Of a stretch of DNA of 64,000 bases, positions 27,320 to 56,383 are shown one piece after another. This DNA comes from Candidatus Levyibacteriota bacterium (GTDB lineage Bacteria > Patescibacteriota > Microgenomatia > Levybacterales > UBA12049). The first letter of the stretch is position 1. Every line of letters starts with the position of its first letter. The notes beneath the pieces were generated by a model. The model was not told the origin of the DNA. It was given only the letters and a program-made list of their open reading frames with translations, and made no database searches. A program made the translations under genes and the position numbers. The stretch spans positions 46,312 through 110,311 of the forward strand of contig JACPLF010000006.1 of the NCBI GenBank assembly GCA_016186645.1, in the 5' to 3' direction.

Positions 27320-27323
27320 AACG

Positions 27324-30528: not shown

Positions 30529-30553
30529 TTTGATACCATCAATTATAGTTTAT

Positions 30554-31957: not shown

Positions 31958-31958
31958 A

Positions 31959-33389: not shown

Positions 33390-33391
33390 TT

Positions 33392-34675: not shown

Positions 34676-34684
34676 TTTTTTCTT

Positions 34685-36636: not shown

Positions 36637-36655
36637 TTGCTAATTATAACACAAT

Positions 36656-37369: not shown

Positions 37370-37421
37370 TTCAGATTAATTTTATCATATTTATACACAA
37401 TATAATGTATAATTACAGCCT

Positions 37422-38204
37422 ATGGTTAAAAATACTTTATCGGTTGATTTAGAATCTTTTATTCACAGACAACTTAATACTAAAAAAAGAATAGAAAGTG
37501 AAAATGGGGAGACTGCCTTAGCAATTAAATATCTTTTGGATATTTTTGATAAATATAACACAAAAGTAACATTTTTTGTTTTGGGGGAAATTTATGAATG
37601 GTACCCGGATCTTATTGAGGAAATCAAAAAAAGAGGACATGAAATTGGATATCATGGCCACAGGCATATTCTTTTTAGAAATAGAGAGACACTTCTTGAA
37701 GACTTAAAATTATCTAAAAAATTTCTTGATACATATAAGCCTATTGGCTTTCGTGCTCCGAGAATGTTTTTGAAAAAAGAATATTTGAAGATCTTGTCCG
37801 ATTTTGGTTTTAAATATGATTCTTCTGTCTATGGGCAACAAATAGAAGATATAAGGGAATTTGGCATTAAAGAAATTCCTGTTTCTTTATCCAGATATTT
37901 TGGAAACAGCATATTAAATAAATTCCCTCAGGGCATGAGAAAAGAGCTATTGCTTCAGGGAATACCTTATGGATCCGGTTTGTTTATTTCTCTTTTGCAG
38001 AAAAAGATTCAATATTTTATAGAAAAATCCCACAAGAAAAATATTGGCTCTAATCTGTTTATTCATCCATGGCAGCTTAGTGGTTATAAAGAAACGGGTT
38101 CTTTACCTTTGATTCAAAAACTTTCCTATAGAAAAAAGGTGGACAGTGTGATTGAATATTTACTAGGTAGGAATAAATTTTTTCCTTTGAAAGAGCTTGT
38201 ATGA
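37422..38204 (+). CDS. Polysaccharide deacetylase (carbohydrate esterase family 4)
   Basis: KVTFFVLGE...GHEIGYHGHRH NodB-homology motifs. Confidence 0.75.
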   Translation: MVKNTLSVDLESFIHRQLNTKKRIESENGETALAIKYLLDIFDKYNTKVTFFVLGEIYEWYPDLIEEIKKRGHEIGYHGHRHILFRNRETLLEDLKLSKKFLDTYKPIGFRAPRMFLKKEYLKILSDFGFKYDSSVYGQQIEDIREFGIKEIPVSLSRYFGNSILNKFPQGMRKELLLQGIPYGSGLFISLLQKKIQYFIEKSHKKNIGSNLFIHPWQLSGYKETGSLPLIQKLSYRKKVDSVIEYLLGRNKFFPLKELV

Positions 38205-39112
38205 AATATTTAGTAACAGGAGGATTAGGATTTATCGGATCAAATCTCGTTGACTATCTTTTGGAAAAAGGACATGAAATTGTAGTTGTAGATGATTTAT
38301 CTACGGGTAAAGAAAGTTACAAAAATCCTAAGGCAACATATTACAATTATTCAATTGCAGATTTGAATTTAATGACTGAATTAACAAAGGGGATGGATGG
38401 AATTTTTCATTTAGCAGCGTGGGCAAGATTACAAAGAAGTATTAATGATCCTCTTGGAACAAATCACGCAAACGTAACCGGAACCTTAACTTTACTTCAG
38501 GCAGCCCGAGTCAATAAGGTAGAAAAATTTATATTTTCTTCGTCTTCTTCTGTATATGGTATGCAGGAAAATCCAATCATGGAGGAAACAATGTCTACAA
38601 ATCCACTTCATCCCTATGCTTTACAGAAGTTGGTGGGGGAAATGTATTGCAGGTTGTACAGCAAGTTATTTGGTATTAAGACTGTTGCTCTTCGATACTT
38701 TAATGTGTATGGTCCTAGACAAATTATTGACGGGGATTACGCACTTGTGATTGGCACGTTCCTGAAGCAAAAAAGAGAAAATAAAAAGATGACAATTTAT
38801 GGTGATGGTAGACAAACAAGAGCATATACGCATGTTGGCGACGTAGTAAGAGCAAATCTTCTAGCTATGGAATTGTCTATGGAAAAAGGAGAGAGTGAAA
38901 TTTTTAACATTGGCACCGATCGGGAAACATCGATAAATGAAATTGCTAAAATGTTGGGTGGAGAAGTCGAACATATTATTCCTAATCCAAGAGGAGAATT
39001 TGAAGAAAGACGTAAGGCAGCCAATTACTCAAAGGCGTTAAAAATTCTTGGATGGAAACCTACAGTTACTATCGAAGAAGGGATTAAGCGGCTTCTTGGT
39101 CAAAAGAGTTAA
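38201..39112 (+). CDS. NAD-dependent NDP-sugar epimerase/dehydratase (UDP-glucose 4-epimerase-like)
   Basis: YLVTGGLGFIGSNL; YALQK (YxxxK). Confidence 0.8.
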   Translation: MKYLVTGGLGFIGSNLVDYLLEKGHEIVVVDDLSTGKESYKNPKATYYNYSIADLNLMTELTKGMDGIFHLAAWARLQRSINDPLGTNHANVTGTLTLLQAARVNKVEKFIFSSSSSVYGMQENPIMEETMSTNPLHPYALQKLVGEMYCRLYSKLFGIKTVALRYFNVYGPRQIIDGDYALVIGTFLKQKRENKKMTIYGDGRQTRAYTHVGDVVRANLLAMELSMEKGESEIFNIGTDRETSINEIAKMLGGEVEHIIPNPRGEFEERRKAANYSKALKILGWKPTVTIEEGIKRLLGQKS

Positions 39113-40059
39113 ACAATCTCATCTATCAGATAGGTTTCTCTTTTCTGACTGCTGATTGCATCATAGCTTATCATATCCGCTATAAATCCAAACCCCAAAA
39201 ACATAATCCCTAGTAAAATCAATACGACCCCGAGTATTATAGATGGAAGATCTTGATATAAATGACGTCCAAAAAATATCTTTTCATAAGCAAAGAAAAA
39301 ATTTATTAGAAAGCCACTTAGGAAAGATACAATCCCTAAAAAACCAAAAATATGAAAAGGCCTTGTCGAATACTTCATGAAGAATTTTATGGTAAGTAGG
39401 TCAAGAAAGCCTCTGAAAATTCTGGTGTAATTGTAATTTGTTTTTCCATTAGCTCTTTTTCTTATATTGATAGGAACTTCGGTAACCCTAAATCCTTTCC
39501 AAAGAGCAAGAAGGGGTAAGTATCTGTGCATTTCACCATATAGATGTATATTCTCAACAACCCTTCGTGTAAATGCCCTCATTCCGCCTGTTGAGTCATT
39601 TAATTTACTTCCGGTTATAATTCTGACTAAAATATTTGCTAATTTAGATGGGATAGTTTTTCTTATCAAGGAGTCTGAAGAGTTTCTGTTTTTTCTCCAT
39701 CCGCACACCACATGGTACCCTTCATTTATCTTTTTAATCAATGGCAAAATATCTTTTGGATCATGCTGCATATCGGAGTCCATAGTCACAATTATATTCC
39801 CAGCGCAATTTGTGATGCCGGCAGAGATTGCGTTAGATTGTCCGTAATTTGACATTAGCTTTACAATTTTAACTTTTTTATCCTTTGAAGCAATTCTTTT
39901 TAGTAAATTAAAAGACTCATCTTTTGATCCATCGTCTACGAACACTATTTCATAGGAGTCTTTATCCGGCAAAACTTCATTTATTTCGTTGTATAATTTC
40001 TGAATGTTTCCTTCCTCATTAAATATGGGGATGATAACAGATATGCCTACTGGCTTCAT
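39109..40059 (-). CDS. Polyprenyl-phosphate glycosyltransferase (GT2, GtrB/ArnC-like) with C-terminal TM hairpin
   Basis: ISVIIPIFNEE...IVFVDDGSKD...DSDMQHDP plus two C-terminal helices. Confidence 0.8.
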   Translation of the reverse strand: MKPVGISVIIPIFNEEGNIQKLYNEINEVLPDKDSYEIVFVDDGSKDESFNLLKRIASKDKKVKIVKLMSNYGQSNAISAGITNCAGNIIVTMDSDMQHDPKDILPLIKKINEGYHVVCGWRKNRNSSDSLIRKTIPSKLANILVRIITGSKLNDSTGGMRAFTRRVVENIHLYGEMHRYLPLLALWKGFRVTEVPINIRKRANGKTNYNYTRIFRGFLDLLTIKFFMKYSTRPFHIFGFLGIVSFLSGFLINFFFAYEKIFFGRHLYQDLPSIILGVVLILLGIMFLGFGFIADMISYDAISSQKRETYLIDEIV

Positions 40060-40091
40060 AATGCATATTTTATCATAAAACTGATCAATTA

Positions 40092-40754
40092 ATGTATAAT
40101 ATTGTGATGAACAAGACTGAGGCTAAAAAGATTTTGTCTTTATATAAAAACCTATCTTTTTTCGATAGGTTTCACATCTACATAAGATTGCGCCGATTGC
40201 CATTTGAGACTATTGAAAAGTATATTCCAAAAAATGGAAAAATTTTGGATTTTGGATGCGGACATGGTTTTTTCTCTTTATACATGTCACAAAAATCTCC
40301 TGCAAGAAACATTATCGGGGTTGATATATCTAAGGAAAAAATCAATGTAGCTAAGGCTTCAAAACACAGCAATAAAGTTTCTTTTAGTTATGACCTAAGA
40401 AGCATGTCGTTTCTAGAAAAACAACTTGATTATGATTGCATAGTGATTATAAACGTGCTATATCTTCTCAGAAGAAAAGAGCAAGAAAAAGTCTTGGAAA
40501 AGGCAAGTAAAGCCTTGGTTAAAAACGGAAAACTTTTGATAGTCGAACCTGATGCTAATTTAAAATTCAGAACTTTTTATGAGATAATACGGGAGTCTAT
40601 AATGCTGAAATTACTAAGAAGAACGCAGGGGAAGGGTTTAACTTTCAATACGAAAGAATGGTGGATAGAAAATCTAAAAAAATACCTAAAGAAGGTAGAG
40701 GTTAGAGAGTTTCCTAACAAAAAGCATCACTTGTTATATATCTGCACAAAATAA
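40092..40754 (+). CDS. Class I SAM-dependent methyltransferase
   Basis: ILDFGCGHGFF motif I. Confidence 0.75.
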   Translation: MYNIVMNKTEAKKILSLYKNLSFFDRFHIYIRLRRLPFETIEKYIPKNGKILDFGCGHGFFSLYMSQKSPARNIIGVDISKEKINVAKASKHSNKVSFSYDLRSMSFLEKQLDYDCIVIINVLYLLRRKEQEKVLEKASKALVKNGKLLIVEPDANLKFRTFYEIIRESIMLKLLRRTQGKGLTFNTKEWWIENLKKYLKKVEVREFPNKKHHLLYICTK

Positions 40755-40758
40755 ACCT

Positions 40759-41508
40759 ATGAATGACAAAAAATTAAATGTGGGGATTGTTGGTGTTGGA
40801 GAAGTTGGGTCATCAGTATTGGCTTTGGTTTCCAGAGTACACAATGTTTTTATGAGAGATATAGACAAAGATACAATCAAAAATCAAAAATTGGATGTTC
40901 TTCATGTTTGTATTCCATATGGCAAAGATTTTGAAAAAATAGTTATAGAAAATGTTAAACGGAATAATCCAGATTTGACAATAATTGAATCAACTATTTT
41001 GGTAAAAACAACAGAAAACATTTACAAATTGATAAAAAAACCCATTGTTCATTCTCCTGTAAGAGGTTTTCATACAACCATGGTTGGTGATCTTAAAAGA
41101 TTTGTTAAATTTGTTGGGTCTGTCGATAGGAAGTTTGCGCAGGATGCAAAAAAATATTACAAAACTTTGGGAGTTAATGCGCAGGTTGTAACTTCATCCC
41201 GCGAGACAGAAATGGGAAAACTTTTGGACACAACTTATTACGCTTTATGTATTGCATGGCATCAAGAGATGGATAGATTTTGCAAGAAATATAATATTAA
41301 CTTTGATGAAGCGGTAACTGCTTTTAACAAAACTTATAACGATGGATATAGAAATTCAAAGCCCAATGTAATTAGACCTGTTTTAACTCCAGGATTTATT
41401 GGAGGACATTGTCTTATGCCAAACATTGAGATTTTGAAGAAATCTTTCAAGTCAGATTTTCTCAGGGTTGTAGAAGAATCTAATGACAAAAAGAAAAAAA
41501 ATATCTAA
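40759..41508 (+). CDS. NAD(P)-binding Rossmann protein, short nucleotide-sugar dehydrogenase-like
   Basis: VGIVGVGEVGSS dinucleotide motif; PGFIGGHCLMPN resembles the UDP-glucose dehydrogenase catalytic PGxGFGGSCxPKD loop but with His for Ser; only 249 aa. Confidence 0.35.
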   Translation: MNDKKLNVGIVGVGEVGSSVLALVSRVHNVFMRDIDKDTIKNQKLDVLHVCIPYGKDFEKIVIENVKRNNPDLTIIESTILVKTTENIYKLIKKPIVHSPVRGFHTTMVGDLKRFVKFVGSVDRKFAQDAKKYYKTLGVNAQVVTSSRETEMGKLLDTTYYALCIAWHQEMDRFCKKYNINFDEAVTAFNKTYNDGYRNSKPNVIRPVLTPGFIGGHCLMPNIEILKKSFKSDFLRVVEESNDKKKKNI

Positions 41509-42113
41509 TGGACATTCTTTCTATAATTCAACATCTGCCTTTGGATATAGGACAAGCTGATAGAAAGCATAAAACAGCAGGAAAAAAAATTGCTCTATCT
41601 TTTATTCGGGAAGGAAAAGGAAAACTTGCTCTTGATATTGGATGTAGAGATGGTTATTGGTCAGAAGTTCTAAAGAAAAAAGGATACATAGTTAAATCTT
41701 TAGATATAGAGCCGCATTATAAAGGGGCATTAAAACACGATGTTGAAAAAGGACTGCCATTTGAGAATAAGACGTTTGATTTGATTTGGTGCACGGAAGT
41801 TTTGGAGCATCTCAAGAATCCTGAATTTTTAATTAAAGAAATAGGTAGAGTGATGAAAAAAAATGGAGTGGCAATTTTGACTACTCCAAATTCCAATTGG
41901 TGGGCATATTGGTTAGTAAAGCTTTGGGGTTGGACGCCAAAAAAACTTCAGAATAAAGATCACAAGCAATTTTTCGATGAAAATACTTTAAGAAATATTA
42001 CATCAGGATATGACATCTTTGGATATTTTCCCTATGCCCTTATCTTTTTAAAAATAAAATTTTTCCTAGGAATTCTATCTCCAACATTTATTTTGAGAAA
42101 GAATTTTAAATAA
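41508..42113 (+). CDS. Class I SAM-dependent methyltransferase
   Basis: LALDIGCRDGYW motif I; IWCTEVLEHL; KKNGVAILTTPN. Confidence 0.75.
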   Translation: MDILSIIQHLPLDIGQADRKHKTAGKKIALSFIREGKGKLALDIGCRDGYWSEVLKKKGYIVKSLDIEPHYKGALKHDVEKGLPFENKTFDLIWCTEVLEHLKNPEFLIKEIGRVMKKNGVAILTTPNSNWWAYWLVKLWGWTPKKLQNKDHKQFFDENTLRNITSGYDIFGYFPYALIFLKIKFFLGILSPTFILRKNFK

Positions 42114-44191
42114 TGTTCAATTTTTTATCAAATAAAAAAATCTTGGCTTTAATAGTGGGATGCATATATTTCATTTTATTGTTGGTTAGTATGCCTGACT
42201 ACAATATTTTTTGGGATGCCAGAAATCATTATTTTAAGGGCCAGGCATTTGTAAGTTTTTTTCTTTCTGGGAGAAAAGATTATGAAGGATTACCAATCAC
42301 CAAGGACTATGCTCGTTATCATCGGGATTATGTGAGCAAATATTCCCCTGATCCAAATATTGCAAGTAGGATTTCTAAAGACCCAAATTACAGAAGAAGT
42401 ATATATCAGGATGATGTTCACACTTTCGATTGGTTAATGAAATCCAATCAAATAGAGCACCCTGTTTTTAGTGATATAGCCTCAACTTTTTCCAATGTTT
42501 TATTTTATGAAAAACTTGGGTGGCTTAGGGACGACTATTCTTATCGTATTTATACTTTATCTTTGGCTTCGATTCTGGTTACTGTTATTTTTTATTGGCT
42601 TTTTAGTCTTTACGGTTTTATCGCTGCAATAATTGGTACACTTACTTTAGCAACAACTCCTCTTTTTTGGGCAGAAAGCCATTTTAATTTAAAGGATATT
42701 CCTCAAATGACTTTTTTTGCTTTAGCTATTTGGCAGTTTTATAACGGAATTGTTTCTAAATCAAAAAAGAAAATAATTTTTTCGGCAATTTTTGCAGCTT
42801 GTGCATTTTCAACAAAATTAAACATTGTTTTTCTGCCATTTATTTTAGCTCCATGGTTTATTATTTTTTATCTCAAAGAGAAAGAAGAAGAAAGGAGCAA
42901 ATATCATAGTTGGTGGTGGTTATTGTTGGCATATCCTGCAATTATGTTCGGAATTTTTATTGCAGTTTGGCCTCAGATGTGGCAAACACCAGTCAAGAGC
43001 TTTCTGGATGTTATAGAAATTTATAGACAGATAGGAGTTGCGCCTGATTACACTCCTACATTTAGAACAATATTTGGATTTAGTACTTACGCAGCTATTT
43101 GGATATTTCTTACAACTTATCCGTGGGTTGGGATTTTATCCATTTTTGGTATAGCAGCAGCAATACTTAATTTCAAAAAAGTGAAAAATTATCTTCCATT
43201 TTTATTGTTATTATGGCTTTTTGTTCCAATAGCAAGAGCTTCTCTTCCTTTCACTTCAATCTTTGGTGGAGTAAGGCATATCATGGAATACATTCCGGCG
43301 TTAGCTATGCTGGTTGGATATGGCACCTACAATCTCCTCAAGTTTTTTCCGAGCAGATTAAAAGGAATTATTGGATTAATTCTGATTTTGGGTTTTATAC
43401 CTCTTATTTTGACTTTGGTTAAGCTGCATCCTGCAGAAAATGTTTATTTCAATTCTTTGATTGGGGGTTTAAGCGGAGCTAAAAAAGCAAATATTACTGG
43501 TTGGGGATACAATGACGGAGGAATTTACAGAAAAGCAACAGTTTGGCTTAATGAACATGCAGAAAAAGGATCTCATGTGGCTGTCACTTTTAGCGAACCT
43601 GCGGATTTTTATATTCCAGAGTTAAGAGACGATTTATTAGCAGATAATTCTTTTAGCGGATATTTGCAAAAAGGAGAGTATATCATTGGGTTAACTCATG
43701 ATACAGGCTTGGATCATGTTTACAGAGTTAAATATTCTGAGGACTTCTTAGAGCCTCTATATTTATTTTCTATTGATAATGTGCCACTGTTAAAAATATG
43801 GAAAAATGAAAAGAAATATCTTAAAAAAGATTTTTCAAAGCTTGATTTTAAAAACCTAAGCATAATGCCGGAAAAATTAGAGGACATATTACAGTGGAAA
43901 TTAGATAGTGAAAAAATAATTATGGGAATTGAGGTTTCATTTGACGAAAACGGATCTTGTAAAAAATTAACAAACGCATATTTTCAAGTGTCTGAAGATG
44001 GAGAAAATTGGGAGATTCTGCCAGATATTTATCCTGGCGGAACTTTGAGCTTTCTAGGAGACCAGCCAAAAGATGGAAAATTAGTTGCGCCAATTGTAGG
44101 AGTGAAAATCCAGTATGTTTCTTTAGTTATTGACCCTCAAGATTCATGTATATTTAATCTGAAAAATAGCGAAATTGTTGTGCTGGAATAA
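42113..44191 (+). CDS. GT-C-type integral membrane glycosyltransferase-like protein (family A paralog) with discoidin-like C-terminal domain
   Basis: Shares SIFGGVRHIMEYIPA and the HFNLKD block with the 4139 protein; 692 aa. Confidence 0.7.
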   Translation: MFNFLSNKKILALIVGCIYFILLLVSMPDYNIFWDARNHYFKGQAFVSFFLSGRKDYEGLPITKDYARYHRDYVSKYSPDPNIASRISKDPNYRRSIYQDDVHTFDWLMKSNQIEHPVFSDIASTFSNVLFYEKLGWLRDDYSYRIYTLSLASILVTVIFYWLFSLYGFIAAIIGTLTLATTPLFWAESHFNLKDIPQMTFFALAIWQFYNGIVSKSKKKIIFSAIFAACAFSTKLNIVFLPFILAPWFIIFYLKEKEEERSKYHSWWWLLLAYPAIMFGIFIAVWPQMWQTPVKSFLDVIEIYRQIGVAPDYTPTFRTIFGFSTYAAIWIFLTTYPWVGILSIFGIAAAILNFKKVKNYLPFLLLLWLFVPIARASLPFTSIFGGVRHIMEYIPALAMLVGYGTYNLLKFFPSRLKGIIGLILILGFIPLILTLVKLHPAENVYFNSLIGGLSGAKKANITGWGYNDGGIYRKATVWLNEHAEKGSHVAVTFSEPADFYIPELRDDLLADNSFSGYLQKGEYIIGLTHDTGLDHVYRVKYSEDFLEPLYLFSIDNVPLLKIWKNEKKYLKKDFSKLDFKNLSIMPEKLEDILQWKLDSEKIIMGIEVSFDENGSCKKLTNAYFQVSEDGENWEILPDIYPGGTLSFLGDQPKDGKLVAPIVGVKIQYVSLVIDPQDSCIFNLKNSEIVVLE

Positions 44192-44215
44192 TATTTTGTT
44201 GTATACTTGTTAACT

Positions 44216-45427
44216 ATGGATGGTAAATTGCGGGTTACATATGCCAAGGCGGTATATGATGATAAGGAAATAGAAAGAGTTGTCAGCGTTTTGAAAGAGC
44301 ATAGGGAAGCAGTTGGTCGTGAGACTGATGAATTTGAGAAAAGAGTATCAAGGGCTTTTGGGAAAAAATATGGAATAATGGTTAACTCCGGTTCATCCGC
44401 AAATCTTTTAGCATTTGAGCTTATTAATTTAAAACCAGGATCCGAAGTTATCACTCCTCTTCTTACTTTTTCAACAACTGTAAGTCCAATAATACAGAAA
44501 GGGTTGGTTCCTGTATTTGCAGATGTTGAGGAGGGAAAATATATAATTGATGTATCTCAAATTGAAAAATTAATTACAAAAAAGACAAAAGCGATTATGA
44601 TACCTCTTTTGATAGGAAATATTCCAAATATGAAAAAAATTTCGGCAATTGCAAAAAAACATAAACTCTTTCTTATTGAAGATTCTTGTGATACGTTTCA
44701 AGGATTTTTTGATGGCAAACCAACAGGAACTTATTCGGACATTACTACTACAAGTTTCTATGGGTCTCATATCATTACTGCTGCGGCAGGGGGAGGGATG
44801 ATAATGGTAAATAGTGAAGGATATCGTGATAGGGCAAAGGTATTAAGGGGTTGGGGAAGACAGTCTTCTCTTTTTAATGAATCGGAAAGCATTGATAAAA
44901 GATTTAACTCCAAAACCAAAATAGAAGGAGCGCTATATGATGCAAAATTTATTTTTTCAGAAATAGGCTACAATTTTTTGCCTCTTGAAATAAGCGCTGC
45001 GTTTGGAAATGCGCAACTAGATAAACTTCCCGTTTTTAGAAAAAAGAGAGAGGAAAACTTCAGACATTTGCTTAATTTTTTCAAAAAGTATGAAAAGTTT
45101 TTCATCCTTCCAAAACAAGATGCTATGGTTGGTACTCAATGGCTTGCATTCCCATTAACAATAAAAAAGAATGCTCCCTTTACCCGTTTCGAAATTGTAA
45201 AGTTTCTTGAGGAGAATAACATTCAGACCCGTCCTATTTTAGCAGGTAATGTGCTTAAGCAACCCGGCTTTACAGAGATAAAGAACAGAATAATAAAAGG
45301 CGGATGCCCAGTAACGGAACTAATTATGAAAAATGGATTTGTGGTTGGTTGTCATCAGGGACTTGAAGATGTTCACCTTGAGCGGATTAAAGAATCAATA
45401 GCAGCTTTTATCAAAAGTCTTTCTTAA
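44216..45427 (+). CDS. DegT-family enzyme with His replacing the PLP lysine: putative nucleotide-sugar 3-dehydratase (ColD/E1-like), second copy
   Basis: SFYGSHIITAAAGGG. ATG at 44216 preferred over the upstream TTG at 44207 used by the track. Confidence 0.65.
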   Translation: MDGKLRVTYAKAVYDDKEIERVVSVLKEHREAVGRETDEFEKRVSRAFGKKYGIMVNSGSSANLLAFELINLKPGSEVITPLLTFSTTVSPIIQKGLVPVFADVEEGKYIIDVSQIEKLITKKTKAIMIPLLIGNIPNMKKISAIAKKHKLFLIEDSCDTFQGFFDGKPTGTYSDITTTSFYGSHIITAAAGGGMIMVNSEGYRDRAKVLRGWGRQSSLFNESESIDKRFNSKTKIEGALYDAKFIFSEIGYNFLPLEISAAFGNAQLDKLPVFRKKREENFRHLLNFFKKYEKFFILPKQDAMVGTQWLAFPLTIKKNAPFTRFEIVKFLEENNIQTRPILAGNVLKQPGFTEIKNRIIKGGCPVTELIMKNGFVVGCHQGLEDVHLERIKESIAAFIKSLS

Positions 45428-46356
45428 TCTTTATTTTTAAAAATACTTTTTACAATAAATTTAGGTCTTTGTTTTACCTCTTCAAATATTTTGCCAATGT
45501 ATTCTCCAAGAACACTTATTCCCAATAATTGGATTGCTCCGATAAATAACACTGCAATTAATACTGTTGTAGTTCCTTGAGGAGTGTTTGGCAAGACAAG
45601 CCTTAATATTATCTGTACTACTATCGCAACAAGGGCAATAAAGAAAACAATGAACGAGAGCATTGTCATAATTTGCAAAGGAACGTAGGAGAAAGAAAGT
45701 ATTCCCTTTGTTGCCCAATTAATATTTTTAAGAAGGCTATTGGTTGACCTGCCAAACATTCTTTCAGGCCTTGTGTAGGGTATTCCTGTTTGTCTAAATC
45801 CAACCCATGCCCTTAGTCCTCTTAGGAATCTGTCTCTTTCGGGAAAAGTTTTCAGGATTTGTACAACCTTGTTGTCTATTAAAGAGAAATCTCCGGCATC
45901 AAGAGGCATTTTTATGTAAGACAATTTGTGGAAGATTCTGTAGAAAAGCTTATAGGCAATGGCCATGTAAAGAGGCGCTTCTCTTTTTGTTCTTATTCCA
46001 TAAACAACATCATATCCCTGAATCCATTTCTCATAAAGTTTTTCTATTAATTCCGGAGGATCCTGTAAATCCCCATCCAGCAGCACTACTGCATCAGAGT
46101 TAGCAATTTCCATGCCGCTTGTGAATGCCATTTGTGAGCTGAAATTTCTCGAATGGTTTATCGCAATTACGTGTTTATCTTTTTTTACAAGATTTTCCAG
46201 GATTTGTTCTGTCTTGTCAGGACTCCCGTCATTTACAAAAATTATTTCATAATCAGTACCAATTTTTTCAAAAGTCTTTTTAAGCCTTTCATACATTATG
46301 GGAATTGCCTGTTCATCTTTGTAGCATGCGATAACTGCAGATAATTTTTTATTCAT
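45424..46356 (-). CDS. Polyprenyl-phosphate glycosyltransferase (GT2, GtrB-like) with C-terminal TM hairpin
   Basis: SAVIACYKDE...IIFVNDGSPD...DGDLQDPPE; C-terminal hydrophobic helices. Confidence 0.8.
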   Translation of the reverse strand: MNKKLSAVIACYKDEQAIPIMYERLKKTFEKIGTDYEIIFVNDGSPDKTEQILENLVKKDKHVIAINHSRNFSSQMAFTSGMEIANSDAVVLLDGDLQDPPELIEKLYEKWIQGYDVVYGIRTKREAPLYMAIAYKLFYRIFHKLSYIKMPLDAGDFSLIDNKVVQILKTFPERDRFLRGLRAWVGFRQTGIPYTRPERMFGRSTNSLLKNINWATKGILSFSYVPLQIMTMLSFIVFFIALVAIVVQIILRLVLPNTPQGTTTVLIAVLFIGAIQLLGISVLGEYIGKIFEEVKQRPKFIVKSIFKNKD

Positions 46357-46380
46357 ATTTTAATTTCTAGTTTCCATTTT

Positions 46381-46875
46381 CTATCTTCTAAGGTTTACAT
46401 ACCAAGGTTTGTCACTTTTTATCATATCATTAACAAGTCCTGGAATTTCTTCCAGAGTTTCAGGCCATCTTGAATCTATATTTTTAAATATTTTCATAAC
46501 TTCCCTATCTTCTTCTGCCCAATGGCAAAATCCATGGTCTGAATAATCTTTATCTCGTCCACCCCCAATTAACTTAACAGGAATACTTTCGTGATCTAAG
46601 TAATTCCTAATCGTTTCAAACGGACGGTATAAGAGGAAGGTTGTGATAGAGTAGATTATTGGTATTTTTCCTTGTAGAGCCAATCCAACTCCTATTCCTA
46701 CCATTGCTTGTTCTGCCGCCCCAACGTTTAATACTCTGTCAGGGTAAGAAGATCTCAGATCATCTAACATCTTATATCCTAGATCACCGGTAAGTATATA
46801 TATTTTCTTATTCGACTTCATTCGCTGAAAAAGTTCGTAAACGAACCATCCGCGCATTGAATTATGTCTTTTCAT
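46381..46875 (-). CDS. Transketolase-like pyrimidine-binding domain protein, C-terminal half of a split mini-transketolase
   Basis: GDLGYKML...FPDRVLNVGAAEQAMVGIGVGLALQGKIP resembles the transketolase Pyr domain; 164 aa; no transketolase C-terminal domain. Confidence 0.65.
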   Translation of the reverse strand: MKRHNSMRGWFVYELFQRMKSNKKIYILTGDLGYKMLDDLRSSYPDRVLNVGAAEQAMVGIGVGLALQGKIPIIYSITTFLLYRPFETIRNYLDHESIPVKLIGGGRDKDYSDHGFCHWAEEDREVMKIFKNIDSRWPETLEEIPGLVNDMIKSDKPWYVNLRR

Positions 46876-47501
46876 CTTAGTATCTCTAATGCTTTCTTAT
46901 ACTCATCATCAGTCATTGCATGATAATGAGCATCCAATCCTTTAAGAAAGGGTAATTGCTCAACTGTTGTTAATCTTATATTAATTTCAGGACAGAATGC
47001 CTTCAGCCTTTTGGTTAATTGAATGGGATTGATAGCGTCATACGCTCCATAGCCATTTAGATTTATATACACTTTTAGATTATCTACTTTTAGATCAGTT
47101 TTTATTCTTAATGTTTCCCATACGCTTCCTTCCGCACATTCACCATCACTTATCATGCAATAAACATTTTTCGATCTGTCGGCGATTGCCATTCCCAAAG
47201 CAACAGGCAATCCTTGCCCAAGACTTCCAGTTGTACACCAAATACCATTTTTTTCGTCCTTACTCGGATGAATCCCATATCTCCTAAGCAGGTATTCAGG
47301 GTCTCTTCTTTCATGTTTTTCTAGAATGCAATAAAAAGCAAGTCCTGCGTGTCCTTCTGATAATATAAATTTTTCGTCTTCTCTTTTTAAATCGTATATC
47401 TCCTCGATAATATCTACAGCTGATAAACAGCTTCCAAGATGATATTTTTTGTATTTATAGCTAATCTCAATTATTCGTCTTTTTAAATCTTTATTTTTCA
47501 T
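46872..47501 (-). CDS. Transketolase-like thiamine-diphosphate-binding N-terminal subunit (split mini-transketolase)
   Basis: SEGHAGLAFYCIL, GSLGQGLPVALGMA and ISDGECAEGSVWE motifs; 209 aa. Confidence 0.7.
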   Translation of the reverse strand: MKNKDLKRRIIEISYKYKKYHLGSCLSAVDIIEEIYDLKREDEKFILSEGHAGLAFYCILEKHERRDPEYLLRRYGIHPSKDEKNGIWCTTGSLGQGLPVALGMAIADRSKNVYCMISDGECAEGSVWETLRIKTDLKVDNLKVYINLNGYGAYDAINPIQLTKRLKAFCPEINIRLTTVEQLPFLKGLDAHYHAMTDDEYKKALEILR

Positions 47502-47503
47502 TT

Positions 47504-48451
47504 TTAAAGATACTTTTTAAACCATTGATAGGTTTCTTTAAGTCCCTCTTCCAAGCTATATTTCGGTTCCCAATCGAGATATTTTTTGGTTTTTGATATA
47601 TCTGCTACCCAATGAGAAGTATCCCACAAACGTTTCGGAAATACACCTTTTTCGATTTTTACTTTTTTCCCTGTTACTTTGAAAAGTTTTTCCACCACCT
47701 CATCATTTGTAAATTCAAGACCGGTTCCCATATTTAGAATTTGTCCTGAAAGCTCTTTTCCTTTAGATATAGTTTTAATATAAATATCTACGACATCTTT
47801 TATATAAACAAAATCTCTTCTCTGCGTTCCTGATGTAAGTTTAATAGGGTGCCTTTGTATAGCTGCCTTAATGATTATAGGGATAAAACGTTTCTCTTCT
47901 TCGTGCGGTCCGAAAACAGAAAAAGGTCTTAGCGTAACAATTGGTTTTTGATGCTCTTTAGAAAATACTTGGCAGAGAAGTGTTGCTGATGCTTTTGTAG
48001 CGGCATAAAAGCTAATAGGTTCCAAAATATCATCTTCTTTCATTGGGTTTTCTTTGATTCCATATTCGGAAGAAGATCCGGTGTTTATAAAGATTTTATA
48101 ATTTATATCCTTTGAAGATATAAGTAAATTCATGGTACCCTTTATATTTACTTCAATCATTTCAAGCGCAGCTGTATGATCTCTATACGCGCTATATGTT
48201 GCCAAATGAATAATTATAGAAGGATTAATTTTCTCAACTATAGTTTTTAATTCATCCTTGTCCAAAAGATCAACTTCGTGAAGACGGATTTTTGGAAGAA
48301 CATTTTTTAGGCGTTTGAGGTCCGTTGAATTTCGTATAAGTAAATTAATATTTTTATAACCCAAATCCAATAGTTTGTTAACTAAATTAGCGCCAATAAA
48401 TCCAGCACCTCCTGTTATTAAAACAGGATCGCGTGTTATAATGGGAGACAT
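47504..48451 (-). CDS. NAD-dependent sugar epimerase/dehydratase (SDR)
   Basis: VLITGGAGFIGANL and YAATK. Start chosen at the internal Met (MSPIITRD); the track start at 48481 adds 10 residues and overlaps the divergent gene. Confidence 0.75.
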   Translation of the reverse strand: MSPIITRDPVLITGGAGFIGANLVNKLLDLGYKNINLLIRNSTDLKRLKNVLPKIRLHEVDLLDKDELKTIVEKINPSIIIHLATYSAYRDHTAALEMIEVNIKGTMNLLISSKDINYKIFINTGSSSEYGIKENPMKEDDILEPISFYAATKASATLLCQVFSKEHQKPIVTLRPFSVFGPHEEEKRFIPIIIKAAIQRHPIKLTSGTQRRDFVYIKDVVDIYIKTISKGKELSGQILNMGTGLEFTNDEVVEKLFKVTGKKVKIEKGVFPKRLWDTSHWVADISKTKKYLDWEPKYSLEEGLKETYQWFKKYL

Positions 48452-49349
48452 GATTGATATTATATGTGCTTTGTGTGGCAAAAAGCAACAAGTTAAGACT
48501 CTTTATCCTGCCACTTTTAAGGAAAATGCTATCCCTAAAAACATCTATTCCGCCAGACGTTTTCCGGATAAGGTACATTATAAAATTAATAAATGCTCAA
48601 ACTGTAGTTTAGTTTTTTCTTCGCCTATTTTGCCCTTGGAGAAATTATTTCCCCTTTATAGGGAAAGCTTGTGTAATTATCAAGATCAAATACCATATCT
48701 AATTAAAACTTATTTCAAAATTGTCAATGAAATTAAGAAAGATCTCCCCAAAAATCCAAAAGTTTTGGAGGTTGGTTGTGGTAACGGTTTCTTTCTGAAG
48801 GCTTTAAAAGATTTAAATTTCACGCAGAATGTTTTTGGAGTGGAGCCCAGCTACAAAATGGTTTCTAAAGCAGACTCGTCTATAAGGAACAGAATTAAAA
48901 TAGATGTTTTCAATTCCAATCTATTTCCTAAGAATAGTTTTGATCTTGCTTTGTGTTTCCATACCTTGGATCACATGATTGACCCGAACGATTTTATTAA
49001 AGGAGCAAATTCAATGCTGAAGAAAAACGGATATGTAATTGTAGTTGTCCACGACACGCAGGGACTGTCAGTGAAATTATTTGGAGAAAGCTCAGCAATT
49101 TTTGACGTAGAACACATATATTTATTTAACAAAAAAACTTTACGAGAAATATTTATAAAAAATCAATTTAAAGCGATAAAAGTTTTTAACGTGGTCAACA
49201 AATACCCTTTGAATTATTGGGTTAAAATGAGTGGCTTTCCTCTTGTTATTAGAAAAATTGTCAATTATACTATTAGACTAATTGGCTTGAGCAAAATACC
49301 GGTACCAATTCCTGCTGGAAATATTGGTATTATTGCAAGAAAAACCTGA
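48450..49349 (+). CDS. Class I SAM-dependent methyltransferase with N-terminal Cys4 zinc-ribbon
   Basis: CALCG...CSNC pair followed by VLEVGCGNGFF motif I. Start ambiguous (48441 or 48450). Confidence 0.7.
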   Translation: MIDIICALCGKKQQVKTLYPATFKENAIPKNIYSARRFPDKVHYKINKCSNCSLVFSSPILPLEKLFPLYRESLCNYQDQIPYLIKTYFKIVNEIKKDLPKNPKVLEVGCGNGFFLKALKDLNFTQNVFGVEPSYKMVSKADSSIRNRIKIDVFNSNLFPKNSFDLALCFHTLDHMIDPNDFIKGANSMLKKNGYVIVVVHDTQGLSVKLFGESSAIFDVEHIYLFNKKTLREIFIKNQFKAIKVFNVVNKYPLNYWVKMSGFPLVIRKIVNYTIRLIGLSKIPVPIPAGNIGIIARKT

Positions 49350-49360
49350 ATTCATCTTTT

Positions 49361-50116
49361 ATGAAGCTTCCTTTGACACTTATTGTACCTGCTAAAAAAG
49401 AAGAAGAAGCGGTTATCCATACATTGGAAAAAATTAAAGAAAGAGTCAAAATTAATCACAAAGTAATAGTTGTAAATGACTCTTTTGAAGGGGACAAGAC
49501 AGGTGAAATTGTTAAAAAATATGCAGAAAAAAATAAAAATGTTTCGGTAGTTATCAATAGGAATAATCCTCACCCGACTTTTGCAAGCGCATTAATCTTG
49601 GGATTTGATAAAGTGAAAGACGGCGTAGCTATTCCTATAATGGCTGATTTGTGTGACAGACTGGAGGACATAGAAATTATGTATAAGAAAATCCATGAGG
49701 GTTGGGATATTGTCTGCGGTAGCAGATATATAAGGGGAGGGGGAAAAAAAGGAGGACCATTAATTCAGTCGGTAGGCTCATTTCTTATTTGTTCTTTCTT
49801 ACATTATGTGACAGGTATTCCCACAACAGATGTAAGCAATGCTTTCAAAATGTATAGAAAAAACGTTTTGGAAAAAGCGATTATCCATCCAAGAAGCGGA
49901 GTTGAGGCATCTATGGCAATTACGCTGCAGGCGTATTTTGACAAGGCAAAAATCACAGAAATTCCAACTCGCTGGATTGGCAGAACTTTGGGAAACTCTA
50001 AATTTAAAATAATTGAAAGAACGCCTCCTTACTACAAAATTTGCGTATGGGCAGTCAAAAATACCATAAGAAAATACTTGCATCTTAAGCCTCTAAAATA
50101 TAATATAGATTATTAA
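49361..50116 (+). CDS. Glycosyltransferase family 2 (DPM1-like)
   Basis: LIVPAKKEE...VIVVNDS...ADL motifs. Confidence 0.7.
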   Translation: MKLPLTLIVPAKKEEEAVIHTLEKIKERVKINHKVIVVNDSFEGDKTGEIVKKYAEKNKNVSVVINRNNPHPTFASALILGFDKVKDGVAIPIMADLCDRLEDIEIMYKKIHEGWDIVCGSRYIRGGGKKGGPLIQSVGSFLICSFLHYVTGIPTTDVSNAFKMYRKNVLEKAIIHPRSGVEASMAITLQAYFDKAKITEIPTRWIGRTLGNSKFKIIERTPPYYKICVWAVKNTIRKYLHLKPLKYNIDY

Positions 50117-50125
50117 TCGTCTTTA

Positions 50126-53002
50126 ATGAGAAAAATTTCTATATTTATCAAAACTTTTTCTAATTTTTTCAATAAATACTACCCCATATCTGCTTTAGTT
50201 TTTCTTGCGCTGGTAGTTGTTGCAGCCTTGTGGCAGGTCTCAAATTTGTATTTCTGGACAGACGATTGGGATCTATTCCTAAGAATAACCCATCCCAATC
50301 TTGAGCTTTGGGGAATGAAGCCTGGATGGTTTGGCAGCGGTCCGTATCGTTACCTTCCGACTCCCTTCATGCCTTTCTTTCCAATATTTGGTCTTAATCC
50401 AACTCCTTATTTTATTGGCAGTATTTTCGTTTATTTTATCGCCACTGTAAGCGTATTTTTGCTGTTTCTTGAGATTACACGGAAAAGGTCTTTAGCAATT
50501 GGAGCAGCTGCAATTTATGGTGCGTCAGGATATATTGGGAGCTATACAATTTTTCATTTGTCTAATTCTTATCAGAATCTGGGTGCTGTAATATTTACCA
50601 CTTTGACTCTTTGGATTTTGGCAAAACATTATAAAACAAATAATATTTTGTATTACTTGTTAAGCATCTTTCTGTTTTATGCATCTTTGGAGATAGAAAA
50701 TCTTAGGGCTCATGGACTTATATTTTTAGTTTTGGGTTTAACAATTTTATTTGCGAGATGGGAAAAATCTATAGGAAATATCTTGCTTAATTTAGTAAAA
50801 TTAATTCCCTTTGTCTTAGTTTATAGGAATTTGTACAGCGCTACGTTGGGGTCCGGACATACGACTACTGTTGGAGCATTTTTCTACACAATGGGGAGAG
50901 ATAAATTATATGCATATTTTATTAACCCATTTGCAAGTTTTAGTAACGTTATTATTCCGGACAATATAACAAAATTTATCTATAGCTTTTTTGGTAAGCT
51001 ACCAGGCAACCCAGTCCCTGAAATTATCCTCATTTTGCTTTTTACTTTGGCGACATTGTTTATTGTTTTTAAAAATAAAAGTTTAGTTCAGAAGTATTTT
51101 GGTTTGATTTTAATTGCCACAGAAATTGCATATTTCTTCTTCAATAAATGGGCGATAAAACAGCCCATACTTTCAAATCTTGAGATACATGCCGGTTTTA
51201 CTTCTATGCTGGGTATGACACTTTTGCTGTCATTATTGCTGGTCAGTTTCAGATTATGGAAAAACAGGGAAAATATTCTTAGCAGAGTCTTACTTTTTGG
51301 AGTAGTTTTAATTTTTGGGCATTATATTGGTTATTTTGTTGGCGTTCCCGGATATAGCTATCTTATAACTACCGATAGATACTTAACGCCCTCTGCTGTT
51401 GGGACAGCACTTATATTGGGAACTTTGTTTTACGTGATTAAGTTTAAAAAGATAGCTTTTTTCCCAATCTTTGTATTTTTTTACTCTGCATATTTAATAA
51501 TTCTTATGAATATAGCTGCTTATCAAACAGTCAACGATGTCAGTAAACCTACAAGACGAATATATGATAATATAAGGAAAATTACCCCATCCATACCTAA
51601 AAATTCAGTATTGTTGTTAAATATTGAAAATACTTCTAACTTGAGATACTTAGTTGGGAGTTCTTTTCCTAGCACTGCATTTGCATTATTTTATGGATTT
51701 CCAAATAGGGTTCCTGCTGTGCGTTCCTTTGATGAGTATCTTTATGATGTGAAAATGGGGAAGATGAAATTGGATGACTTACAAAGTTTTTATATCGATC
51801 AATGGAAAATCATAGATACAACTAAGGAAATAATATCACTTTTGAAAAATCCAACAGTCCCTAGTGTATTAAATCTTTCAAAATGGTCTAGCAATACTCC
51901 GTTCTCAAATAATAATTCGTTTAGTACCGGTTCTTTTATTTTAGAAAGAGAAAAGGATACTGTGGGGGTTAACCCGCAAATAGATGCAAATATAGATTAT
52001 AAAAGTATTGTTCCTGCAATGCTTAGTCTAACCATTACTGCGAGTCCGGCTATTTTGGATGGGAAAAAACTTCCCTATCGTGATATTTCCACTACTGTAG
52101 GAGATGAAATTATAAAAGAAGATTTAGTGAATTTGGTAATTGATGAGGTTATGGATCCAGCATCATGTAAAAATATTCCTATGTTTATCGCTTTAGATAA
52201 AGAGCGTAAAGAATTTGTAAAACAGGGAAGTATAGACGTTACTTCGCAAACTCAATATAGTGAAAAAGAATTTTTGTACGATGGCTTATTTAATACTAAT
52301 TGGTCGGGGCATGTGTTGGATTGGGCTAATGAGAAGTTAGTAGAAGTAACTTTGGACTTAAAAACCATAAAGCCTGTAACTGCATTTGTTTGGGTGAACT
52401 ATCTAGAAAGAACTACGCCCACTCAATATGTTATTTTGGGATCAGAAGATGGTACGAATTGGAAAAAATTAAAAGAGGTCAATAAGGGGCCGGGAAGATT
52501 GGACGGAGAATTCGTTTTGGAAAACTTTCCAGAAACAAACGCTAGGTACATAAAAATGATTATTACAGATATTTTGATAAAAAATGCCCCAGCTATGTCT
52601 GAAATTTGGACAAGTTCGCAAAGTAAAACAGAGGATTTGAAAGGTTATTCAAAACATCTAATTGATAATCCAATGCAATGTTCTTTAAAAGGTATTAATG
52701 AATACACAAGTCTTATTACCTCTCTTGATTTTCAGGCCAAAGCTAAGATTTGGTGGTTAACAGATAGCTGGGAAAATTTCAGCGAAAATAATTCTAAAGA
52801 GTTTAGTGTAATTTTGGATGGTCAGCCTCATACTTATAATATTTTTATCCCGGCCCAGGGAACCATGCTTGAGAAAATAAGAATAAATAATTTTCAATTG
52901 CCTATTAATTTAAATATTCAAAAAGCAGTAATTCGTTCTTTAACTTTTAAAGAAATTGATGAAACGGGGCATATAAGTATGCCTACAGGATCCACCAATT
53001 AA
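50126..53002 (+). CDS. Large polytopic membrane protein (GT-C-like) with C-terminal F5/8 type C discoidin-like carbohydrate-binding domain
   Basis: 958 aa. The N-terminal roughly 470 aa is hydrophobic. C-terminal NWSGHV...VTAFVWVNY...GSEDGTNWKKL...ARYIKM resembles a discoidin domain. Confidence 0.6.
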   Translation: MRKISIFIKTFSNFFNKYYPISALVFLALVVVAALWQVSNLYFWTDDWDLFLRITHPNLELWGMKPGWFGSGPYRYLPTPFMPFFPIFGLNPTPYFIGSIFVYFIATVSVFLLFLEITRKRSLAIGAAAIYGASGYIGSYTIFHLSNSYQNLGAVIFTTLTLWILAKHYKTNNILYYLLSIFLFYASLEIENLRAHGLIFLVLGLTILFARWEKSIGNILLNLVKLIPFVLVYRNLYSATLGSGHTTTVGAFFYTMGRDKLYAYFINPFASFSNVIIPDNITKFIYSFFGKLPGNPVPEIILILLFTLATLFIVFKNKSLVQKYFGLILIATEIAYFFFNKWAIKQPILSNLEIHAGFTSMLGMTLLLSLLLVSFRLWKNRENILSRVLLFGVVLIFGHYIGYFVGVPGYSYLITTDRYLTPSAVGTALILGTLFYVIKFKKIAFFPIFVFFYSAYLIILMNIAAYQTVNDVSKPTRRIYDNIRKITPSIPKNSVLLLNIENTSNLRYLVGSSFPSTAFALFYGFPNRVPAVRSFDEYLYDVKMGKMKLDDLQSFYIDQWKIIDTTKEIISLLKNPTVPSVLNLSKWSSNTPFSNNNSFSTGSFILEREKDTVGVNPQIDANIDYKSIVPAMLSLTITASPAILDGKKLPYRDISTTVGDEIIKEDLVNLVIDEVMDPASCKNIPMFIALDKERKEFVKQGSIDVTSQTQYSEKEFLYDGLFNTNWSGHVLDWANEKLVEVTLDLKTIKPVTAFVWVNYLERTTPTQYVILGSEDGTNWKKLKEVNKGPGRLDGEFVLENFPETNARYIKMIITDILIKNAPAMSEIWTSSQSKTEDLKGYSKHLIDNPMQCSLKGINEYTSLITSLDFQAKAKIWWLTDSWENFSENNSKEFSVILDGQPHTYNIFIPAQGTMLEKIRINNFQLPINLNIQKAVIRSLTFKEIDETGHISMPTGSTN

Positions 53003-54207: not shown

Positions 54208-54212
54208 AATTG

Positions 54213-54221
54213 TGTTATAAT
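54213..54221 (+). promoter_or_regulatory. Extended -10 promoter-like element TGTTATAAT, second copy of the ATTGTGTTATAAT motif
   Basis: Lies in the divergent intergenic region 54208..54260, about 39 nt upstream of the ATG at 54261. Confidence 0.3.
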
Positions 54222-54260
54222 ATTTTACATTATTCAGAGACCAAATTAAATACTTAGAAT

Positions 54261-55313: not shown

Positions 55314-55314
55314 T

Positions 55315-56382: not shown

Positions 56383-56383
56383 C

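Follow-up and report, generated by a model that had tools for sequence, protein, structure and literature searches.

The window analysed here, a stretch of 64,000 nucleotides from a Candidatus Levyibacteriota genome (contig JACPLF010000006.1), contains at positions 44216..45427 a DegT-family gene that very probably encodes an enzyme stripping the 3-hydroxyl group from a nucleotide-activated sugar. The product is predicted to be a nucleoside diphosphate (NDP)-4-keto-6-deoxyhexose 3-dehydratase, probably acting on a CDP-linked sugar. It appears to belong to an E1-related subfamily without the iron-sulfur cysteines, which would make it a 3-dehydratase that is not E1 proper and, by descent, not a ColD. 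Deoxygenation of sugars at C-3 follows two mechanisms on one scaffold, one of which (E1 and SpnQ) uses a cluster and a reductase, and the other (ColD) hydrolysis and transamination. In E1 and SpnQ, a [2Fe-2S] cluster sits on a four-cysteine motif and a reductase is needed, whereas ColD has no cluster and requires no reductase (PMC8987622). The cluster motif of E1 is C193-X57-C251-X1-C253-X7-C261 (Agnihotri et al. 2004, as cited in PMC8987622).

The predicted protein, in which the peptide SFYGSHIITAAAGGG was confirmed, matches the Pfam profile DegT_DnrJ_EryC1 (PF01041) over positions 4-359 of 360 (E = 4.4e-75), and this full-length match and the fold place it in the fold-type I DegT/DnrJ/EryC1/StrS superfamily. 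An AlphaFold (AF2) model, for which a 26-sequence family alignment served as input, had a mean predicted local distance difference test score (pLDDT) of 93.4 and was most similar to E1 (template modelling score, TM, 0.90), followed by ColD (0.86), with values of 0.83-0.90 for many DegT members. The top NCBIfam model was RfbH (NF011936; 358.6 bits, under the equivalog cut-off of 423 bits), and the solved relatives were ranked as E1 (3bcx; 251 bits, 1e-73), ColD (177 bits, 5e-51) and aminotransferases (at most 144 bits). Sequence identity was 35% to E1 and about 30% to ColD. An in-frame TTG codon is also present at 44207, nine bases 5' of the ATG start codon.

The position of the Schiff-base lysine of aminotransferases is filled by His185 (SFYGSH), and the protein therefore lacks the lysine of true aminotransferases and carries the catalytic His replacing Lys that characterizes the 3-dehydratase group. 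In HMMER alignments to solved structures, His185 corresponds to His220 of Yersinia E1 (SFYPAH220H), to the Lys of the E1 H220K mutant (3bb8) and to the Lys of the sugar aminotransferase 7b0m (SFNGNK). All 120 closest database homologues have a His here, within the motif SF[FY]G[SA]H, which makes it a conserved family trait rather than a sequencing error, and the residue is equally invariant across the 140 sequences of the His clade in the tree described below, including 123 representatives. The residue before it is Ser, as in ColD, whereas E1 has Ala. The raw HMMER alignment placed the His on ColD H189; a comparison of 3b8x (H188N) with 2gms (wild type) and the downstream EGG anchor indicated a one-residue local misalignment around the shifted SSFY of ColD, and His185 is most probably equivalent to ColD H188.

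The iron-sulfur site of E1 has been largely replaced. In a residue-numbered alignment, C251, C253 and C261 of E1 correspond to Ser, Leu and Ile, so that three of the four ligands are gone, and the E1 segment WGRDC251YC253APGCDNTC261KKRF is matched by WGRQSSLFNESE-SIDKRF. The equivalent of C193 is the sole ligand left; it is not diagnostic because ColD has it as well. The loop follows a conserved motif, WGRxSSxFxESExxxRF; 40 variants of it were found among the 120 closest homologues, all but one of them (39) free of Cys, and the motif was kept in most Cys-less metagenomic relatives. Given this conservation, the replacement of the loop is not a sign of decay. No ORF (open reading frame) for a ferredoxin/FNR-type (ferredoxin-NADP reductase) partner, i.e., an E3 protein, was detected in the window by Pfam/NCBIfam scans, tblastn and hidden Markov model (HMM) searches.

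The protein can be compared with both known enzymes. With E1/RfbH/AscC/DdhC (CDP-6-deoxy-L-threo-D-glycero-4-hexulose 3-dehydrase of Yersinia pseudotuberculosis, 3bcx), the protein shares the H220-equivalent His, a WGR-to-KRF loop of nearly equal length and an association of its orthologues with CDP-glucose genes, but it differs in the conserved Cys-free SSxFxESE in place of C251/C253/C261, in having no E3/FNR-like partner and in the Ser before the His. With ColD (GDP-4-keto-6-deoxy-D-mannose 3-dehydratase of E. coli O55, 2gms), it shares the His for Lys after Ser, and the chemistry of ColD, with no iron-sulfur cluster and no need of a reductase, is also predicted for it. However, ColD does not have the long loop, and its substrate is derived from GDP-mannose, whereas the relatives of the protein studied here are found with CDP-glucose genes.

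A BLAST search against the ORFs of the window recovered two further DegT proteins, both with an identity of about 30% to the predicted 3-dehydratase. The copy at 11416..12597 also has His for Lys, and its top PDB match was wild-type ColD (2gms; 9e-64, compared with 5e-39 for E1), its GHH aligning with S187-H188-H189 of ColD; the copy at 21682..22764 retains the lysine and served as an outgroup. A neighbour-joining tree (100 bootstraps, 145 sequences, about 400 columns) was built from the three DegT proteins of the window, E1 and ColD (from PDB alignments), 15 close homologues, 123 representatives from a library of 1.8 billion proteins, and two Lys-bearing DegT proteins from related loci. All His-bearing proteins were monophyletic with respect to the Lys-bearing ones in 100 of 100 bootstraps. 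The 11416..12597 copy grouped with ColD, without E1 and the protein under study, in 94 of 100, and the latter grouped with E1, without ColD and the 11416..12597 copy, in 85 of 100; its grouping with ColD without E1 was seen in only 3. It was also placed within a clade of at least 25 members, none with the Cys motif, in all 100 bootstraps. By descent, its closest known relative thus appears to be E1 (RfbH/AscC/DdhC): it is not closest to ColD and has no GDP-mannose 4,6-dehydratase context, whereas the 11416..12597 copy is closest to ColD in sequence. The first-pass annotation of the window had described a second His-for-Lys DegT paralog and named clustering of both copies with ordinary aminotransferases as the outcome that would overturn its reading. 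The second copy was borne out, and both proteins fall in the NDP-sugar 3-dehydratase clade. The two are not equivalent, one being ColD-like and the other apparently E1-derived, and they are old, divergent relatives from different subfamilies rather than recent duplicates.

The comparison was extended to 90 non-redundant related loci, in which the dehydratases were sorted by their loop into 63 Cys-less and 27 E1-type loci (3-4 Cys in the loop, mostly with SFYPAHHIT); 23 and 18 of these, respectively, had a flank of at least 8 kb. A single-protein contig scan gave nine loci, four of which were distant DegTs, and an alignment-based metagenome scan was much more productive. No E3-type ferredoxin-FNR protein was found in the related loci by regular-expression search. 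An FNR-like family of 229 aa (Pfam domains FAD_binding_8 and NAD_binding_1, no ferredoxin domain) emerged from unsupervised clustering of the neighbouring ORFs; it is present beside the dehydratase in 6 of the 27 E1-type loci and in none of the 63 Cys-less loci (Fisher p = 5e-4; 5/18 versus 0/23 among long-flank loci). In all six loci (L071, L079, L080, L086, L089 and L095), it shares the strand of the dehydratase gene, at a distance of no more than about 110 bp in five of them and about 560 bp downstream in L079. The 229-aa protein is a candidate E3 equivalent, shorter than the 329-aa AscD. Such a distribution would be expected of a Cys-less lineage that has become independent of electron input. 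Two other gene associations were observed in the same set: B12-binding radical SAM (S-adenosylmethionine) genes occurred in 5 of the 27 E1-type and 0 of the 63 Cys-less loci, and RmlC-like cupin (3,5-epimerase-like) genes in 13 of the 63 Cys-less and 0 of the 27 E1-type loci (Fisher p = 0.008), the latter hinting at L-configured or epimerised products in the Cys-less lineage.

Based on the absence of the Cys ligands, the lack of a reductase and the restriction of the FNR-like gene to Cys-bearing loci, we infer that the protein combines ColD-like, reductase-independent chemistry with an E1-type scaffold. If true, a widespread clade with the ancestry of E1 and a ColD-like cofactor content would document how one solution to C-3 deoxygenation turns into the other, and it would be a source of simple enzymes that produce CDP-3,6-dideoxy-4-keto sugars without a reductase.

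The nucleotide carried by the substrate is suggested by the company of more distant orthologues. Those with 42-68% identity adjoin genes for glucose-1-phosphate cytidylyltransferase and CDP-glucose 4,6-dehydratase. A cytidylyltransferase-like gene of about 258 aa lies within a few kb in L001, L002, L007, L008, L010 and L011 (273 bits for the L007 copy, with the cut-off at 300), and a bona fide CDP-glucose 4,6-dehydratase (460 bits, cut-off 278) is additionally encoded in L011. Among the long-flank loci, a cytidylyltransferase-like gene was present within 10 kb in 14 of the 23 Cys-less and 11 of the 18 E1-type members. Within the window, two tandem SDR (short-chain dehydrogenase/reductase) genes could function downstream in the tailoring of a CDP-3,6-dideoxyhexose. 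The best solved relative of the first, at 54261..55313, is CDP-tyvelose 2-epimerase (154 bits versus 87 for the next family; PDB matches 9rl0 at 4e-44 and 1orr at 1e-34, next family 1e-23), and no SDR of the window reaches an NCBIfam cut-off. Because of the orthologues beside cytidylyltransferase/CDP-glucose dehydratase genes and of this tyvelose-epimerase-like SDR, the substrate is likely to be a CDP-sugar, most likely CDP-4-keto-6-deoxy-D-glucose. No sugar-1-phosphate nucleotidyltransferase was found in the window, either by Pfam/NCBIfam scans of all listed ORFs of at least 150 aa or by tblastn with cytidylyltransferase and RmlA seeds.

The gene is flanked on its 3' side by a convergent operon encoding, in order of transcription, an SDR, the two subunits of a split transketolase-like enzyme dependent on thiamine diphosphate (ThDP) and a family 2 glycosyltransferase (GT2), and on its 5' side by closely spaced plus-strand genes for a methyltransferase, a protein resembling UDP-glucose dehydrogenase (UGDH), a second methyltransferase and a GT-C membrane glycosyltransferase (Table 1). 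The arrangement of SDR, two transketolase (TK) subunits and GT2 next to GT-C and DegT is kept in the three closest relatives, L004-L006 (70-87% identity): the adjacency of the GT-C gene to the dehydratase gene and the GT2 gene are both conserved in all three, and the genes at 40092..42113 are syntenic with the dehydratase in L005 and L006.

The GT2 matches GtrB (sll0501) over its full length (250 bits, 2.6e-73, residues 4-305), compared with 145 bits (2.6e-41) for ArnC. The transketolase subunits represent a miniature form. The N subunit, with the pyrophosphate-binding (PP) domain, matches the N chain of a split transketolase from Carboxydothermus (6yak; 1e-14) and retains the His, SEGHA, TGSLGQGL, SDGE(x)EG and N-x-N motifs, with SDGE in place of GDG. 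The other subunit, with the pyrimidine-binding (Pyr) domain, matches the corresponding C chain (6yaj; 4e-16, covering only the first 192 residues of 6yaj) and keeps the cofactor-activating Glu (AEQ). The PP and Pyr domains of a transketolase-type ThDP enzyme are thus both encoded at 46381..47501. There is no Transketolase_C domain, as the Pyr subunit ends at 164 aa; in related loci, subunits of 304-316 aa include it. In addition, about 26 residues present in the N subunits of L004 and L005 are missing from that of the window. The miniature pair was observed in the window and in L004, L005, L006 and L058. The Pyr-only family had 2241 database hits, mostly of 164-170 aa and mostly annotated as 'hypothetical protein' in Levybacteria; the Pyr subunit of the window is 100% identical to one of them, HYW62_02335 of a Candidatus Levybacteria metagenome-assembled genome (Microgenomates group). 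An identity of the ThDP genes as phosphonopyruvate/sulfopyruvate decarboxylase was considered and rejected: the PP domain precedes the Pyr domain, transketolases are the top matches, and the Pfam/NCBIfam scans gave no phosphoenolpyruvate (PEP) mutase.

Table 1. Features of the 64,000-nucleotide window (positions are those of the window)
Feature	Position	Strand	Size	Remarks	Basis
Wzx-like flippase	1765..3045				
ColD-like His-for-Lys DegT	11416..12597	+		FSFYVGHH; first His aligns to ColD His188	
MBOAT	15115..16614				
Third DegT, ordinary sugar aminotransferase	21682..22764	+		Schiff-base Lys kept; FSFSTPK, FSFSTPKVITTGQGG; tree outgroup	
RmlD-like reductase	29680..30528				
Polysaccharide deacetylase	37422..38204				
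Methyltransferase	40092..40754	+			Pfam
Truncated UDP-glucose-dehydrogenase-like protein	40759..41508	+	249 aa		Pfam
Second methyltransferase	41508..42113	+			Pfam
GT-C membrane glycosyltransferase, PMT_2/ArnT-like	42113..44191	+	692 aa	Directly upstream of the predicted 3-dehydratase gene	Pfam PMT_2 6.9e-07
His-for-Lys DegT-family protein, predicted 3-dehydratase	44216..45427	+	403 aa	Start ATG 44216, stop TAA 45425-45427	
GtrB/ArnC-like polyprenyl-phosphate GT2	45424..46356	-		Convergent with the predicted 3-dehydratase gene, 4-nt overlap	Pfam Glycos_transf_2
Pyr-domain subunit, split transketolase-like ThDP enzyme	46381..46875	-	164 aa		Pfam Transket_pyr
PP-domain (N) subunit, split transketolase-like ThDP enzyme	46872..47501	-	209 aa		Pfam Transketolase_N
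Extended SDR	47504..48481	-		First gene of the SDR-TK-TK-GT2 operon	Pfam Epimerase 2.3e-50
F5/8 type C protein	50126..53002		958 aa		
First of two tandem SDRs	54261..55313	+		Possible tailoring of a CDP-3,6-dideoxyhexose	
Second of two tandem SDRs	55279..56382	+		Possible tailoring of a CDP-3,6-dideoxyhexose	

Contacts between ThDP enzymes and dehydratases recur elsewhere. Split transketolases whose C subunit has its full length are encoded directly next to the dehydratase gene, or overlapping it, in the same orientation in two Cys-less (L017 and L044) and two E1-type loci (L061 and L083), the typical gene order being cytidylyltransferase, SDR, SDR, TK_N, TK_C, dehydratase; in L026, the pair lies about 1.7 kb downstream of the dehydratase on the same strand with two ORFs between, and in L007 and L058 it is part of the dehydratase cluster. 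A ThDP enzyme like acetohydroxyacid synthase (AHAS) or YerE is present instead of or besides a transketolase in L001, L008, L010, L011 and L058, and either kind of gene occurs within 10 kb in 11 of the 23 Cys-less and 8 of the 18 E1-type long-flank loci. In the Cys-less loci L001 (36..6296) and L011 (2195..5119), the AHAS/YerE-like gene stands alongside NeuB-like genes, and in L001 also alongside dehydroquinate (DHQ)-synthase-like, FGGY-kinase and HAD-phosphatase genes; the products of these companions might form a longer 2-keto-acid donor, as for the long branches of the erwiniose or caryophyllose type.

YerE is the established enzyme for C2-branching of CDP-3,6-dideoxy-4-keto-D-glucose, which is the E1 product (PMC12247030). 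As in the YerE/YerF system of yersiniose synthesis, a ThDP enzyme and a reductase are here encoded beside an E1-type dehydratase, but YerE is an AHAS-type enzyme, whereas the one in the window is of the transketolase type, split and reduced to PP and Pyr (209 + 164 aa). Split transketolases have been proposed, never shown, to branch keto sugars, the proposed cases being all from Streptomycetes and none characterised (PMC12247030); the split-gene transketolases of miharamycin and amipurimycin are likewise proposed keto-sugar branching enzymes (PMC12247030). Because transketolase genes recur in operonic contact with 3-dehydratase genes, the product of the pathway is most likely a C-branched 3,6-dideoxyhexose of the yersiniose kind rather than plain colitose or tyvelose.

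The explanation that we favour, and regard as reasonably probable as a whole, unites an iron-sulfur-free 3-dehydratase, C-branching by the transketolase and lipid-linked delivery. The dehydratase would depend on pyridoxamine/pyridoxal 5'-phosphate (PMP/PLP), with His185 as the general base, which would deprotonate the PMP-ketimine at C4' and drive the loss of the 3-OH group from an NDP-4-keto-6-deoxyhexose, most likely the CDP-D-glucose derivative named above. In a ColD-like turnover, the enamine would be released and hydrolysed to a 3,6-dideoxy-4-keto sugar and ammonia, and an amino donor, for example glutamate, would restore PMP. The resulting 4-keto sugar would then probably serve as the ketone acceptor for the adjacent split transketolase, which would add a C2 unit to C4 in analogy to YerE, and an SDR would reduce the branched product. 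Finally, the completed sugar would be linked to polyprenyl phosphate by the GtrB-like GT2 and passed on to a cell-surface acceptor by the GT-C encoded upstream. The source bacterium, a member of the Patescibacteria group, has no lipopolysaccharide. Similar to the GtrA/GtrB/Gtr(type) and ArnC/ArnT systems, a GtrB/ArnC-like GT2 and a PMT_2 GT-C flank sugar-modifying genes here; unlike in those systems, no flippase was identified adjoining the GT2 and GT-C genes of the window.

Several observations weigh against this explanation. The tree was a neighbour-joining tree on about 400 columns without SpnQ among its references. An adjacent reductase was seen at just 6 of the 27 Cys-bearing loci, and the absence of the cysteines is no proof of ColD-like turnover, as a free ferredoxin/flavodoxin system or another reductant may serve. 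Neither a nucleotidyltransferase nor a recognisable CDP-glucose 4,6-dehydratase is present in the window or within 10 kb in L004-L006, so that the choice of substrate rests on the more distant orthologues. The coupling to the transketolase is guilt by association: in the window, the operon is convergent with the dehydratase gene and not co-transcribed with it, and the truncation of the transketolase (no C-terminal domain, the gap of about 26 residues) could mean a different or reduced activity.

It is possible, though rather doubtful, that the locus makes a classical unbranched 3,6-dideoxyhexose (paratose, tyvelose, abequose or colitose class), with the dehydratase as the E1/RfbH equivalent, the SDRs of the window reducing and epimerising its product and the transketolase being unrelated. 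The similarity of the SDR at 54261..55313 to CDP-tyvelose 2-epimerase, the RmlD-like and RmlC-like genes of the window, RfbH as the best NCBIfam model and the absence of a nearby ThDP enzyme in about half of the long-flank related loci would all agree with such a pathway. However, the iron-sulfur ligands and the E3 partner of E1 are absent and the RfbH score is under the cut-off; the SDR-TK-TK-GT2 block is conserved beside the gene in all close relatives, and split transketolases abut dehydratases elsewhere; and the tyvelose-epimerase-like genes are about 9 kb away with several genes between.

The first-pass annotation had proposed a pathway of this colitose/tyvelose class, and its reading is supported in part. 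The neighbours were as it described, namely a polyprenyl-phosphate GT2 and split transketolase halves, and both the RmlD-like reductase and the absence of a nucleotidyltransferase were confirmed. Its pair of CDP-paratose 2-epimerase-like SDRs was supported for 54261..55313, and its Gmd/Fcl-like pair holds only loosely (106 bits against a cut-off of 415 for Gmd, 215 against 500 for Fcl), the NCBIfam scan having found no bona fide Gmd in the window. The statement that the locus has what is needed for such a synthesis could not be maintained, since three components are missing from the window: a nucleotidyltransferase, any recognisable CDP-glucose 4,6-dehydratase and the E3 reductase. As for the pathway itself, a CDP-linked 3,6-dideoxyhexose remains plausible because of the tyvelose-epimerase-like SDRs in the window and the orthologues beside cytidylyltransferase/CDP-glucose 4,6-dehydratase genes, but the transketolase contacts point to a C-branched sugar.

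An Arn-like lipid-linked pathway on UDP-4-keto-pentose, in which the UGDH-like protein and an SDR would carry out oxidative decarboxylation, the His-bearing DegT would replace ArnB, and the ArnC-like GT2 and ArnT-like GT-C would serve in delivery, is considered unlikely. The gene set does resemble an arn operon (PMT_2 GT-C, a GT2 with 145 bits to ArnC, DegT, SDR and a UDPG_MGDP_dh-like ORF). Nevertheless, the SDR at 47504..48481 scores just 38-52 bits to ArnA/UDP-4-keto-pentose synthase models compared with 144-151 bits to 4,6-dehydratase models (none over its cut-off), the C-terminal domain is missing from the UGDH-like ORF, which is truncated to 249 aa, the GT2 is nearer to GtrB than to ArnC, the orthologues of the DegT sit with CDP-glucose genes, and the DegT itself groups with the dehydratases rather than with ArnB-like transaminases. 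Also unlikely is a lysine-less transaminase or other PMP-dependent activity that would transfer an amino group to C4 and yield a 4-amino sugar, as SpnQ can do in vitro: SpnQ shows aminotransferase activity without its reductase (PMC8987622), the Ser before the His is as in ColD and a two-residue change makes ColD an aminotransferase (title of PDB 3gr9), but no transamination is seen with ColD or E1 in the conditions used for SpnQ (PMC8987622), the His is invariant in the close homologues (120/120) and in the His clade (140/140), and the window already has a normal Lys-bearing DegT.

In the literature searched, no transketolase tied to rfbH/ddhC and no dideoxyhexoses in Patescibacteria were found beyond the review of ThDP enzymes (PMC12247030), and there was no description of a widespread iron-sulfur-free clade of the E1 lineage or of its recurrent operonic coupling to split transketolases. 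The pairing of dehydratase and split transketolase in operons is a concrete candidate for transketolase-type C-branching of nucleotide sugars, which has been proposed for miharamycin and never demonstrated. More broadly, and only tentatively, there may exist a large E1-derived 3-dehydratase lineage without cluster and reductase, abundant in Patescibacteria and also found in marine bacteria, that works with split transketolases (here in a minimal two-domain form) to produce an undescribed C4-branched 3,6-dideoxyhexose, which would be exported on polyprenyl phosphate by a GtrB-like GT2 and a GT-C to the surface of an ultrasmall episymbiont.

Several observations concern individual neighbouring genes. 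The SDR at 47504..48481 has dTDP-glucose 4,6-dehydratase as its top PDB match (6bi4; 122 bits), but the catalytic TDE reads SSE, and it may be a ketoreductase, an epimerase or an atypical dehydratase. Read from their TTG starts, the ORFs 47504..48481 and 48375..49349 share 107 nt in a head-to-head arrangement; in the gene calls for identical public contigs, both begin later (315 aa for the SDR and 292 aa for the other ORF) and no longer overlap. The UGDH-like ORF (40759..41508) has the central domain of the UDP-glucose/GDP-mannose dehydrogenases, the N-terminal domain weakly and no C-terminal domain, and is found at the same position in L005 and L006. The gene of the ColD-like copy (11416..12597, plus strand) is convergent with that of a family 2 glycosyltransferase (12590..13507, minus strand) with an 8-nt 3' overlap, and this GT2 is 31% identical to the GtrB-like one at 45424..46356, which means that the layout of a dehydratase facing a polyprenyl-phosphate GT2 occurs twice in the window.

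The whole window (1..64000) can be described as a glycosylation island. It contains at least six GT-C-type membrane glycosyltransferases (starting at 4118, 7411, 17403, 30497, 42113 and, AftD-like, 56363), about ten GT2s, three of which were judged GtrB-like (45424 by PDB match, 12590 and 39109 by 27-31% identity to 45424), five GT1/GT4s and about ten SAM methyltransferases. The surface glycans of Patescibacteria likely mediate attachment to the host, and the many GT-C, GT2 and methyltransferase genes of this island suggest unusually elaborate surface glycans. Also among the glycosyltransferases is a 427-aa FAD-dependent protein of the amine-oxidase fold (33392..34675; Amino_oxidase, NAD_binding_8), which is not an E3-type reductase and might be a sugar-nucleotide mutase or oxidase.

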